Part shown: positions 39,736 through 42,718 of the stretch, piece after piece
Layout of the letters: the number at the start of each line of letters is the position of its first letter
Position numbering within the stretch: the first letter of the stretch is position 1
DNA from: Myxococcota bacterium
GTDB lineage: Bacteria; Myxococcota_A; UBA796; CAJQPC01
DNA: 64,000 nucleotides
Reading direction: 5' to 3'
NCBI GenBank assembly: GCA_036012755.1
Contig: DASCPX010000193.1
Coordinates: forward strand, 1-64,000
Translations under genes and position numbers: made by a program
The notes under the pieces: generated by a model
What the model saw: the letters and a program-made list of their open reading frames with translations, nothing else
Databases searched by the model: none
What the model was told of the DNA's origin: nothing

Positions 39736-40755
39736 GTGCTCGCCCTCCTCTGCGGACTCGCGCTCGGCTCGGAACCCCCGGATTTCGCCGAGTGGGCCAC
39801 GCGACAGACCCCGCCAGAGGACCACCCCGAGCGCGCCGAGGGCTGGGACTTCGCGGCGGAGCTGTTCGCGCGGCTAGCGCGCGTGGTGGAAGACAACGAG
39901 ACCACCTCTACGTTGTTGGTGGGACGTTCGGTCGAGAAGCGCCCGATCTGGGGCTTCCGGGTCCAGGATCCCGGGGTCGAGCCAGAGCAGGAGCTCCTGG
40001 TCATCGCCCAGCTCCACAGCCTCGAGTGGATCGGCCCGGAGGTGGCCGTCGCGTTCCTGGAAGGCATCGCGTCAGCCCCGCCTCCGGGGGTCGTCGTCAC
40101 GGTCGTACCCATCGTGAACCCCGACGGCCGGTGGCGCTCGGAGCAGGACCTGCTCAACGACGAGGTGCGCAGCTACCGTCGAGCCAACGCCAACGGCGTG
40201 GACCTCAACCGCGACTGGTCCATGCACCGCGACAGCGACGTCATCTGGTCGAAGCTGCCCTGGACGCGGCGCCACTATTACAGCTCACCTGCGCCGCTGT
40301 CCCAGCCCGAAACCCAGGCGGTCGACCGGCTCGCCGCTGAATCGCCGCCCGACGCCTTCGTGAGCCTCCATGCCTTCGGCGGCTACGTCGAGACACCCTG
40401 GGGCGGCGTCTACGAGCCCCCGCCCGACGACGAGCGACTGAAGGCCACTGCCTACGAGATGGCCGAGGCCATGCCGCACCGACCCTACCGGGTCATCCAG
40501 ATCAACCACTGGGTGCGCACCTTTCGCGCGCTCGGCTGCGAGGTCGACCACTTCTACGGGGTCTACGGCGCGGACGCCTTCCTCATCGAGCTGACCAGGA
40601 GCGGAATCACGCTAGCTCCTTCGACCTGGCGGGACTACTTCCGCTGGTACAACCCGGTGGACAAGACCGAACACGTCGACAACGGCGTGGCAGCGCTGGA
40701 GGCGCTCCTCCACCGCATGAGCGCAGAGTCGCGAGGCCTCATCGAGCCCTTGTAG
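39736..40755 (+). CDS. M14 family zinc carboxypeptidase, secreted
   Basis: GRSVEKRPI, HSLE, NPDG, RANANGVDLNRDW, SQPET, SLHA, IEL. Confidence 0.9.
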   Translation: MLALLCGLALGSEPPDFAEWATRQTPPEDHPERAEGWDFAAELFARLARVVEDNETTSTLLVGRSVEKRPIWGFRVQDPGVEPEQELLVIAQLHSLEWIGPEVAVAFLEGIASAPPPGVVVTVVPIVNPDGRWRSEQDLLNDEVRSYRRANANGVDLNRDWSMHRDSDVIWSKLPWTRRHYYSSPAPLSQPETQAVDRLAAESPPDAFVSLHAFGGYVETPWGGVYEPPPDDERLKATAYEMAEAMPHRPYRVIQINHWVRTFRALGCEVDHFYGVYGADAFLIELTRSGITLAPSTWRDYFRWYNPVDKTEHVDNGVAALEALLHRMSAESRGLIEPL

Positions 40756-40774
40756 GGAAACCACGACACCCAGA

Positions 40775-40943
40775 AGGTAATGCCCCGCTCGGGACCATCC
40801 CGAGCGGGGCATAATGAACAGCGGATGTCAGTAGGGACCCGTCTCCAGGTCCAGTGGGCACCGAAACACTGCCGCCGAGAGGGAATTCTCTCAACGGGTT
40901 CACCAGGAATCCCTGGCGCCTACCGGCTTCCGCCGCCTGGCAC
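40775..40943 (-). ncRNA. Candidate sigma-54-dependent structured small RNA (five-way junction), family not recognised
   Basis: Closing helix CGGUAGG/CCUACUG encloses four abutting hairpins; G-U pairs and GNRA loops work only on the minus strand; upstream -24/-12 promoter; downstream terminator; no credible ORF. Confidence 0.7.
40780..40812. terminator. Perfect 15-bp stem hairpin, probable bidirectional terminator
   Basis: ATGCCCCGCTCGGGA-cca-TCCCGAGCGGGGCAT between the + operon end (40755) and the convergent candidate ncRNA. Confidence 0.75.
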
Positions 40944-40953
40944 ACACTTCTAA

Positions 40954-40970
40954 AGCAAGGGGCGTGCCAA
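40954..40970 (-). promoter_or_regulatory. Sigma-54 (RpoN) -24/-12 promoter
   Basis: Minus strand TTGGCACGCCCCTTGCT matches TGGCAC-N5-TTGC(A/T); predicted +1 near 40943. Confidence 0.85.
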
Positions 40971-41012
40971 CAGAAAAAGTGCAGTGATTCGGCCTGCTTC
41001 GAAAAAAGGGCC

Positions 41013-41077
41013 CTGCGACCCGAACGTCGCAGATGGGGACTCCGTACACCGATCTTGTGTTGGGGATTTCATACACC
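41013..41077. promoter_or_regulatory. Candidate enhancer-binding-protein sites upstream of the sigma-54 promoter
   Basis: Palindrome CTGCGAC-N6-GTCGCAG (41013-41032); direct repeats TGGGGACTCCGTACACC (41034-41050) and TGGGGATTTCATACACC (41061-41077), 14/17 identical. Confidence 0.6.
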
Positions 41078-41143
41078 ATCGGCGGCCTCGGGGATCGCCG
41101 GCTTGAAAGGTGGCCATCGCTGGGCGATCCTTGGGCCCACCGA

Positions 41144-42718
41144 ATGCCGGACACTCCACTCGAGCACGAGAACACCTCTGGACTCGTCGATCCCTTGATC
41201 GGCCGGGTGCTCGCGGGCCGGTTCCGGATCCTCGAGTGCATCGCCCAAGGCGGCATGGGGCGCATCTACCGCGCAGAGCAGGCCCCGCTGGGCCGCACGG
41301 TGGCGGTGAAGGTCCTTCACCTCGACGCTCGCAACCAGGATGACGGCAACTTCCGCGAGCGCTTCTTCCGCGAGGCCTCGGTCTGCGCCCGCCTGACCCA
41401 CCCGAACACGGTCCGCATCTTCGACTACGGGACCGACAACGGGGTCTACTTCATCGCGATGGAGTACCTGGAGGGGCGGACACTGAACGACCTCATCCGC
41501 AAGGAAGGGCCGCTGAGCATCGACCGCACGATCACCATCGCGCGCCAGATCTGCCGCTCGCTCGAGCAGGCCCACGGCCAGGGGGTGATCCATCGGGATC
41601 TGAAACCGGCCAACGTCTTCCTCGCTGCGCACGGGCCGGACGAGTTCGTGAAGGTCCTGGACTTCGGGCTCGTGAAGGCGGTCGACTCGAAGTCGCATGT
41701 CACCCAGACCGGGAACATCCTCGGCTCTCCCGCCTACATGAGCCCGGAGCAGGTCCTCGGCACGCCTGTGACCGGGCGAGCCGACGTCTACGCGCTGGGA
41801 GTCATCCTCTACGCCTGCGTGACCCGCAACCTGCCCTTCAAGCGGGACAATCCGCTGGCCGTGCTCAACGCTCAGGCCCACGCCGAGCCCCCACCTTTTT
41901 CGAAGACCGCACCTGACCTCGACATCCCCTGCTCGCTGGAGTGGGTCGTCATGCGCTGCCTCGAGAAGAAGCCAGAGGACCGCCTCGCCTCGATGGCGGA
42001 GCTCGAGCGAGCCTTGAAGCTCGTGGACATGGAGCTGCACGGATCCCTGGAGGGCTTCGACTGGCAGCTGACCGACGGGCGCCTGGACCTGCCCCCCGGG
42101 ATCGAAGACTCGGGGATCGAACGCACCCCGCGACCTTCGCCGACGCCTTCCACGGCCGTCCAGGATGCGCCGAGCAGCCCGACGCTGAACACGCAGCCGG
42201 ACTCCGGCCGGCCGGTGAAGAAGTTCGTGCTCGCCGCGGTCATCGTGCTGCTCCTGGGCTTCGGGGCGATGTTGGCCCTGGCGGTCGGCTTCTTCGTCGC
42301 TCTCCAGCCCGAGCCGCTGGAGCCCACCGAGCCGGTCCCCGCAGAGGTCGAGGTCGTGGCGGAGCCTCCAGTCGACATCGCCGCGGAGCTGGGTTTCGAG
42401 CCCTCGGAGACCTCGGAGGCCTCGGAGGACGTGGGCTCGGAGGCCTCGGAGGACGTGGGCTCAGAGGCCCCCGTGGAGCTCACCGAGACGAAGAAGGCCA
42501 CCCCGAAGACCACCAGGAAGACGACCTCGAACAGGGGTCGTGGGACCACTACGAAGCGGAGTCCGACGACCGGGACCACCGGCACCTCCACGACGAGCGA
42601 AGATCCGCCCGTCGAACCCCCTGACGAGGCCGGCGAGGGCCAGGACCCGGAGCAGGACCCTGACGACTGGGGTAGCGTGAAGCCCGCCTCCGACCTCAAG
42701 GATCCCTGGGCAGATTGA
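41144..42718 (+). CDS. Transmembrane Ser/Thr protein kinase
   Basis: GGMGRIY, VAVK, HPNTV, HRDLKPAN, DFG, GSPAYMSPEQ, DVYALG; TM followed by a low-complexity tail. Confidence 0.95.
   Translation: MPDTPLEHENTSGLVDPLIGRVLAGRFRILECIAQGGMGRIYRAEQAPLGRTVAVKVLHLDARNQDDGNFRERFFREASVCARLTHPNTVRIFDYGTDNGVYFIAMEYLEGRTLNDLIRKEGPLSIDRTITIARQICRSLEQAHGQGVIHRDLKPANVFLAAHGPDEFVKVLDFGLVKAVDSKSHVTQTGNILGSPAYMSPEQVLGTPVTGRADVYALGVILYACVTRNLPFKRDNPLAVLNAQAHAEPPPFSKTAPDLDIPCSLEWVVMRCLEKKPEDRLASMAELERALKLVDMELHGSLEGFDWQLTDGRLDLPPGIEDSGIERTPRPSPTPSTAVQDAPSSPTLNTQPDSGRPVKKFVLAAVIVLLLGFGAMLALAVGFFVALQPEPLEPTEPVPAEVEVVAEPPVDIAAELGFEPSETSEASEDVGSEASEDVGSEAPVELTETKKATPKTTRKTTSNRGRGTTTKRSPTTGTTGTSTTSEDPPVEPPDEAGEGQDPEQDPDDWGSVKPASDLKDPWAD
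42413..42460 (+). repeat. Exact 24-bp tandem duplication in the kinase tail (SEASEDVG x2)
   Basis: tcggaggcctcggaggacgtgggc twice, followed by a partial copy. Confidence 0.85.

Follow-up and report, generated by a model that had tools for sequence, protein, structure and literature searches.

The question raised by this locus is whether a gap between genes, at positions 40775–40970 of the 64,000-nucleotide stretch of Myxococcota DNA that was analysed (hereafter the window), encodes an RNA on its minus strand and, if so, what such an RNA is for. A preliminary description had proposed a stand-alone structured RNA driven by sigma-54. This proposal is supported by the promoter, by covariation among homologs, by independence from the neighbouring genes and by the lack of a matching Rfam family, and it is very probable that the RNA is real, structured and stand-alone.

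Transcription signals and fold at the locus

A sigma-54 (RpoN) -24/-12 promoter, TTGGCACGCCCCTTGCT, occupies 40954–40970 on the minus strand, with its GG at 40968–40967 and its GC at 40956–40955. It matches the consensus TGGCACG-N4-TTGC(T/A) given in the accessible text of PMC9765219. Transcription is predicted to start at 40943, as had been proposed, and both the sequence check and the presence of a GG-N10-GC promoter at constant distance in 37/37 homologs (an alignment of 37 distinct sequences, described below) bear this out. Further upstream lies a palindromic enhancer-like site, TGCGAC-N6-GTCGCA (41014–41031, minus strand), that was missed in the first reading. It starts 63 nt upstream of the -25 G and, judged by its sequence, is a putative binding site of a sigma-54 activator. 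In its family form, TG(G/C)G(A/G)C-N6-G(T/C)C(G/C)CA with two mismatches at most, the palindrome was found in 36/36 homologs with at least 150 nt of upstream sequence, compared to 15.4% of random 200-nt windows. As this consensus was drawn by eye from the same homolog sequences on which it was scored, the fixed position of the palindrome, which starts 57–63 nt upstream of the -25 G in 27 of the 36 homologs, is stronger evidence than its frequency. It is present twice or more in 21/36.

A second, imperfect palindrome of the type GTGT...GG...TTTCC.TACA was observed at 40751–40769, just beyond the 3' hairpin, and again at 41055–41075, upstream of the enhancer-like site. Similar sequence occurs upstream in L129, L135 and L139, and a perfect form lies near another sigma-54 promoter of the source genome (G000:C149:28932). 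This second palindrome is possibly the site of another regulator.

The predicted RNA spans 40775–40943 on the minus strand, that is roughly 164 nt to the end of its 3' hairpin and roughly 170 nt with the tail, both ends being predicted. The 15-bp 3' hairpin (40780–40812, minus strand) is a probable intrinsic terminator. The terminator hairpin of the preliminary description was recovered as a hairpin in both the minimum free energy (MFE) and the centroid structure, but its U tail is weak at this locus and a simple terminator scan makes no call on it in the source genome. In the homologs a 3' hairpin of at least 9 bp is present in 35/37, followed by a mean of 4.6 U in 9 nt (34 of the 37 scored). 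Two mechanical open reading frames that overlap the RNA, 40854–41198 on the plus and 40900–41265 on the minus strand, were set aside on account of length changes among homologs that break the frame.

Folding of 40945–40770 of the minus strand resulted in an MFE structure of -100.7 kcal/mol that is identical to the centroid (z -6.31), and none of 200 shuffles was as stable. The plus strand folds well too (-86.4 kcal/mol, z -5.85) and folding alone can therefore not fix the strand. The minus strand is fixed by the orientation of the promoter in 37/37 homologs together with a U-G/C-G interchange in helix P5, where 31 of the 37 homologs carry U-G and 6 carry C-G. G-U wobbles and GNRA loops had been taken as pointing to the same strand; the interchange in P5 agrees with this, but GGAA, which was counted as one of the GNRA loops, is not looped in the MFE structure since the closing helix extends outward via two small internal loops.

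The closing helix, the four inner hairpins and the 3-nt AAC linker that had been described are all in the MFE and centroid structures. The 5' strand of P1, which closes the junction (40919–40925, minus strand, as are all elements of the fold), pairs with 40835–40829; two-sided changes are seen in 6/6 of its modelled pairs and 85.9% of cells are paired. Outside it, the 5' strand of the outer closing helix (40929–40937) pairs with 40825–40817, and its irregular pairing is retained in most homologs despite variable sequence. The P2 hairpin (40901–40918) is variable in length and loop, with two-sided changes in 4/4 modelled pairs, and is missing altogether in one homolog (G003), a four-way variant. 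P3 (40872–40897) is about one helical turn long in nearly all homologs and has two-sided changes in 9/10 pairs. P4 (40852–40871) carries a large loop, L4 (40866–40857), on a stem in which 4/5 pairs show two-sided changes, and P5 (40836–40851) is a 6-bp hairpin with a GAGA tetraloop (40845–40842). Linkers between helices are 0–3 nt long, which leaves the junction almost without unpaired bases.

Homologs, covariation and distribution

The element is single-copy in the 6.7-Mb source genome. A BLAST search over 60 relatives returned 11 homologs, and a covariance model (R1) applied to 151 genomes of the order scored 59–126 bits in the source genome, in 12/21 other genomes of family f1 and in 7/22 genomes of family f5. 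Nothing above 21 bits was found by R1 in 107 genomes of five other families, and a covariance search of 151 genomes sampled from the phylum brought no further match above 27.3 bits; the best 21–34 candidates per genome were scored in these searches, so divergent members may be missed. Within the genomes scanned, clear copies were found only in the two families f1 and f5 of one order. A core model (R2) added a divergent copy in G007 at 41 bits, which retains the promoter, the enhancer site and the hairpin and has the usual genes around it. The same model gave 25 bits in G010, a lower-G+C genome, at a locus with other neighbours than usual (G010:C33:15956-16110, plus strand; L184:1416-1570). Here the promoter, L3 and P4 are kept, L4 has one change and the GAGA hairpin is replaced; this copy is a probable degenerate homolog. 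Weak model matches of up to 30.5 bits in other families were rejected, no promoter being present in those inspected.

Searching 185,579 species genomes with an exact core pattern gave 42 loci, 16 of them real and 26 due to chance, and a metagenome scan gave 22 loci, 21 real and 1 chance. From the latter, 16 were kept once the chance locus, a truncated copy, a near-duplicate and three sequences that duplicated genome copies had been removed. The alignment accordingly consists of 21 copies from 20 genomes and 16 metagenome sequences, or 37 distinct homologs, with G007 and G010 left out. Phage and plasmid collections yielded no match and viral contigs a single one, which was due to chance. Each carrier genome holds one copy except for a tandem pair in G105 (L067:538-684 and 878-1023), in which each copy has its own promoter, two enhancer sites and a 3' hairpin. 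The many promoter-less copies expected of a REP or MITE element were not seen; there is one copy and the promoter is always present. A promoter-plus-loop pattern run on 154 genomes of the order was noisy, and none of the 8 candidates taken from it scores with the core model. At G005:C65:24663 (plus strand; L198:464-700), in a genus-g4 genome without a scoring copy of the family, a sigma-54 promoter precedes an element made up of an extended closing stem, a head that branches and a U-rich tail. This element does not score with the core model and may be a degenerate member of the family or a different RNA.

Covariation among the homologs is strong. In the 37 sequences, of mean identity 54%, 92.1% of cells pair and 26 of the 31 pairs show two-sided changes. 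The covariation score was 0.595, compared to 0.202 for shuffled alignments (0/500) and 0.083–0.141 for slid partners, in an alignment that was fitted to the structure and contains related, non-independent sequences. When RNAalifold was run independently on the 21 copies, each of the five helices reappeared, P4 being shorter and shifted in register, and in unconstrained folds the probability of P5 was at least 0.94 in 35/37 homologs. The six top mutual-information pairs were all pairs of the structure; mutual information over the 37 homologs gave no pseudoknot signal and no covarying tertiary pair.

Comparison with known RNA classes upheld the claim that the fold is unrecognised and possibly undescribed. 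Rfam 15 had no match at gathering score in the window, nor on L178 and L184, and at E<=10 the best score was 20.9 bits, far below the cut-off, with no family recurring on the RNA across 15 homolog loci. The Pxr model RF01812 does not match at the locus; its best score in the genome is 25 bits against a cut-off of 80, at other positions, and a Pxr search of 151 phylum genomes was without match anywhere, its positive controls being silent as well. 6S RNA (C211), tmRNA (C14) and an RNase P-like signature (C248) are located elsewhere in the genome, no tRNA lies in the window, and there is no Rfam match to SRP RNA at the locus; the SRP RNA of the genome was not found elsewhere with short motifs. 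The features of a small RNA are present: the -24/-12 promoter in 37/37, the enhancer-like site in 36/36, and a 3' end of its own, independent of neighbours.

A second, larger candidate non-coding RNA was observed at G000:C129:91100-92304 (plus strand; L157:1601-2805), where a sigma-54 promoter is followed by approximately 1180 purine-rich bases that hold no coding-like ORF and end in a hairpin and U run. It is single-copy and has no Rfam match. Segments of it match 40/154 genomes of the order in six families, which makes it more widespread than the five-way RNA; at the 7 best homolog loci, 5/7 have an upstream same-strand sigma-54 box and 0/7 an Rfam match.

Possible functions of the RNA

Conservation is concentrated in L4, the P5-GAGA hairpin and the L3 loop, that is in terminal loops rather than at the junction. 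L3 begins A-A-U (A in 35/37, A in 34/37, U in 37/37). The 3' side of L4 reads UCGGUGCC, with GUGCC in 37/37 homologs, the preceding C and G in 36/37 and the U in 35/37, and P5 is 100% paired with GAGA in 37/37; L4 and P5 owe part of this invariance to the way in which the homologs were collected, since 16 of the sequences were retrieved by a pattern requiring it. That P5 can change is evident from G007, where GAGA is retained on a different stem, and from the probable homolog G010, where it is lost. L4 varies in size from 9 to 12 nt, this variation is confined to its 5' side, and the loop holds the longest invariant unpaired stretch in the RNA. Its 3' side is a candidate seed or contact surface.

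On this basis the RNA might be a trans-acting regulator that pairs with mRNA leaders through L4, a reading preferred here tentatively and at somewhat less than even chances. An enhancer-binding activator, which would also drive some ten surface and lipoprotein genes, would switch the RNA on. A stacked P3-P4-P5 head, with its fixed P3 length, GAGA tetraloop and L3 A-A-U, would keep L4 exposed and would probably bind a helper protein instead of Hfq. L4 (UCGGUGCC) could then pair with GGCACC(GA) beside the ribosome-binding sites of target mRNAs and alter their translation or stability, thereby tuning a cell-surface programme. The grade given to L4 pairing reflects a complement signal limited to one genus, set out below, together with a precedent for Hfq-independent pairing close to Shine-Dalgarno (SD) sequences: Pxr and MXnc1 of Myxococcus xanthus, a species without Hfq, pair in the vicinity of the SD sequences of several mRNAs, according to the accessible part of 10.1101/2025.09.11.675593. 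If L4 pairing is true, a bacterium lacking Hfq uses a rigid multiway scaffold to display a seed.

The 8-base complement of L4 occurs near 16/4837 heuristic starts, below the expectation from coding density, and about 7 of these 16 are lipoprotein genes. Its core GGCACC was found in the -30..+3 window of 30/643 lipoprotein-like starts versus 57/3809 others (p 1.8e-6), a comparison in which the lipoprotein class was chosen after the first 16 hits had been viewed and in which start calls are more accurate for signal-bearing genes than for the rest. GGCACC ranks 2/2245 among six-mers and 1/1160 among starts with an SD match; with strong-SD starts the counts are 10/137 versus 5/557. Its positions cluster at about -6 to -12 and -15 to -27, and Sec-like genes are raised for it as well (4/109). 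Across genomes, test versus control matches were 29 versus 43 in the three genomes of genus g1, which are kin and in which some GGCACC hits are paralogs, compared to 27 versus 102 in 22 RNA-negative relatives (p 0.003). In the 18 carriers outside g1 they were 23 versus 86, a ratio of 0.27 against 0.26 for the 22 genomes of these two families that lack the RNA (p 0.55). When the 21 carriers were pooled, p was 0.077, and family f7 gave 65/285. Enrichment of the L4 complement is confined to genus g1, the source genome and its two congeners. It follows that the signal reflects either a lineage-specific target set or a habit of the SD spacer, and GGAGGCACC may be such a lineage habit. Among 56 tRNA genes there is one 7-base match to the L4 complement, in tRNA-Sec; rRNA was not found in the assembly using short primer motifs.

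The proposed activator was approached through the palindrome. At 12 of 59 strong sigma-54-like sites in the genome, that of the RNA included, a palindrome lies 50–111 nt upstream, as compared to 5.6% of random positions. The other 11 sites precede five lipoprotein-like genes, one FadL-type outer-membrane protein and one short ORF that we take to be pilin-like and that has no Pfam match. The lipoprotein bias is suggestive only, since such genes are common (643/4452 heuristic gene calls) and also follow sigma-54 sites without a palindrome. The cognate activator was not singled out among 20-odd sigma-54 activator matches in the genome, and no sigma-54 activator gene is among the neighbours in the window or at 19 homolog loci. 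In 154 genomes of the order, counts of the exact enhancer-plus-promoter pattern were near those of a reversed control. Promoters of the source genome (G000) that share the palindrome, at about 57–68 and 80–99 nt, include C27:144810(-), C27:67326(+), C59:109879(+), C16:161740(-), C63:69849(+), C129:62198(+), C157:42356(-) and C179:160213(+). Several stand before genes that are almost leaderless and encode very short lipoprotein signals, and one stands before the gene of an amidase lipoprotein. The palindrome does not match the Nla28 half-site CT(C/G)CG(C/G)AG as given in the accessible text of PMC9765219, and its half-sites are absent from the accessible text of PMC3333781.

Counting against an L4 seed, conservation over three loops and a sequence-conserved P5 stem exceeds what a seed needs. 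The close rival to L4 pairing is a protein decoy or scaffold, in which the P3-P4-P5 head would titrate one RNA-binding protein whenever the activator fires; we regard this as possible, with a chance of about one third. The invariant bases are spread over three distinct loops, each of fixed geometry, and over the P5 stem, with linkers of 0–3 nt between the helices, which fits such a role, as does the tandem duplication in G105, where a promoter and hairpin for each copy would suit an effect of dosage. GlmY sets the precedent of a decoy RNA with feedback on its activator (accessible text of PMC7073468). Every partner that could be named failed, however. A CsrA sponge was rejected as CsrA occurs in 11/20 carriers and in many genomes lacking the RNA, and the homologs show no conserved repetition of GGA loops. 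Hfq, the Ro60/TROVE protein of YrlA-type Y RNAs and the RapZ of a GlmY/GlmZ-type system were not found in the 96%-complete genome, in which controls were detected, and no RNA-binding gene is a conserved neighbour. The genome does hold a lineage-specific CsrA-like gene of 81 aa with a basic tail (G000:C27:89471-89602, minus strand; L040), followed downstream by a presumably queA-like gene and patchy in distribution (45/151 genomes of the order).

More broadly, the RNA might owe its action to its tertiary fold instead of working as a plain antisense RNA, either in feedback on sigma-54 by binding the holoenzyme or activator, or by binding a small molecule in trans. This is rather unlikely but would, if true, amount to a new class of regulatory RNA. 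An orphan aptamer or catalytic RNA, with the tight five-way junction as ligand pocket or active site in trans, we consider slightly less likely again. The compact multiway junction with a GNRA tetraloop resembles the five-way lysine riboswitch (PMC3082890), and one stem is optional, but the conserved bases sit in terminal loops around a junction nearly devoid of unpaired bases, no riboswitch or ribozyme model is consistent across 15 homolog loci at E<=10, and no tertiary pair covaries. A decoy of the sigma-54 holoenzyme with 6S-like feedback is very unlikely. It draws on the invariant GUGCC(A), whose reverse complement is the -24 box sequence (T)GGCAC (GUGCC in 37/37 homologs, GUGCCA in 23/37), on the long irregular closing stem and on the predicted transcription of the RNA itself by sigma-54. 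The match is, however, a coincidence of 5–6 bases spotted post hoc, and the -24 box is recognised in double-stranded DNA. By eye, there is no bubble and the homologs share no conserved internal complement, and a canonical 6S RNA is found elsewhere in the genome.

The remaining readings turn on the neighbouring genes. In the window the RNA is convergent with an M14 zinc carboxypeptidase gene (PF00246; 39736–40755, plus strand), which lies upstream on the same strand in many relatives, and divergent from a Ser/Thr kinase gene (PF00069; 41144–42718, plus strand; start codon inferred, the longest ORF beginning at 41033). Across 21 neighbourhoods (the window, 19 loci and G007), the RNA is followed immediately by a same-strand gldA/gldF/gldG-like ABC operon in 10/21, usually with the M14 gene upstream, by another same-strand gene in 2/21 and by a convergent gene in 8/21; 1/21 was unclear. 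The absence of a same-strand gene downstream, from which a cis riboswitch had been judged unlikely, thus holds in the source genome but not in 12/21 neighbourhoods, and since many relatives have the operon there that argument does not suffice. The conclusion itself was borne out on other grounds. A sigma-70-like TTGAC box lies between the RNA hairpin and the operon in 7/9 loci (by eye) and likewise precedes the operon at 8 loci in genomes that lack the RNA. In two RNA-negative genomes one passes straight from the M14 gene, identified by its C-terminal motif and by eye, into the box, and no remnant of the RNA is seen. These junctions, the box of the operon and the varied neighbourhoods argue that the RNA is a self-contained gene, subject to loss, relocation, inversion and duplication. 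Since its place and orientation shift with respect to the genes around it, and since the operon is served by a promoter of its own, the RNA is stand-alone and not a leader. A cis leader or riboswitch of the ABC operon, stranded at this locus by rearrangement, is largely refuted: the operon downstream in 10/21 neighbourhoods and the layout of aptamer plus terminator speak for it, but a convergent gene follows in 8/21 with the RNA still fully conserved, the operon lies on another contig in the source genome, and the box precedes it with or without the RNA. Least credible along with it is a non-functional repeat, MITE or chance fold beside a promoter-like motif, for although high G+C sequence folds easily (plus strand z -5.85), gene position and orientation change and the distribution is patchy, there is one copy per genome bar one tandem pair, promoter and enhancer site are always present, compensatory changes persist at 54% mean identity, and the phage, plasmid and viral searches gave nothing but one chance match.

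Comparison with known systems

Few regulatory RNAs are known from Myxococcota and a literature search found none for these uncultured lineages. No description of the RNA was found in the published literature searched, by titles and listings, and supplements of surveys could list the motif. The main texts of the motif surveys PMC11109978 and PMC8632094 are without mention of myxobacteria or RpoN, and the supplement of PMC5568312 holds none of the motifs of the RNA. On sequence grounds the RNA stands for a real family, apparently absent from existing catalogues, that is of a known kind and of unusual architecture, its regulatory target and expression being predicted. The full description, with a 37-sequence covarying structure, promoter, enhancer site, candidate surface-gene regulon and candidate seed, is submittable as a new family.

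Like the lysine riboswitch, the RNA arranges five helices round one junction with an optional stem and a GNRA loop; the Moco riboswitch is a five-way junction as well. Five-way riboswitches, however, act in cis with conserved junction bases, whereas the new RNA depends on no downstream gene and has no Rfam match. With the sponges CsrB/RsmZ and CrcZ it shares a stand-alone, multi-hairpin form, and the genome has a CsrA-like gene. Such sponges are marked by repeated GGA or CA-rich motifs; here no such motifs are repeated, CsrA is not co-distributed and no Hfq was found. NrsZ and Qrr1-5 are simple stem-loop series. As far as the accessible sources describe them, sigma-54 and an activator yield a trans-acting RNA that pairs with mRNAs, as is proposed here, but they are gammaproteobacterial and without sequence or model match to the new RNA.

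Transcription of GlmY is sigma-54-dependent. As a QseF-activated decoy of RapZ, GlmY resembles the new RNA in being activator-driven and tied to envelope homeostasis (accessible text of PMC7073468). It differs in that no RapZ was found in the genome, there is no Rfam match and the fold is another. Pxr of Myxococcus xanthus (RF01812) is likewise stand-alone, with a predicted sigma-54 promoter and an upstream enhancer region, and it is myxobacterial, Hfq-independent and requires a loop, SL1, for function, as far as the accessible texts of PMC5684412 and PMC5568312 go. According to the same texts Pxr is 108 nt long, consists of three consecutive stem-loops, lies behind the activator gene pxrR and is reported from Cystobacterineae. 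In contrast, the new RNA is about 164–170 nt long, forms a closed five-way junction, has no adjacent pxrK/pxrR activator genes and no RF01812 match. Of the known systems it is Pxr that the new RNA works most like, yet by model, fold, length and gene context it is not Pxr.
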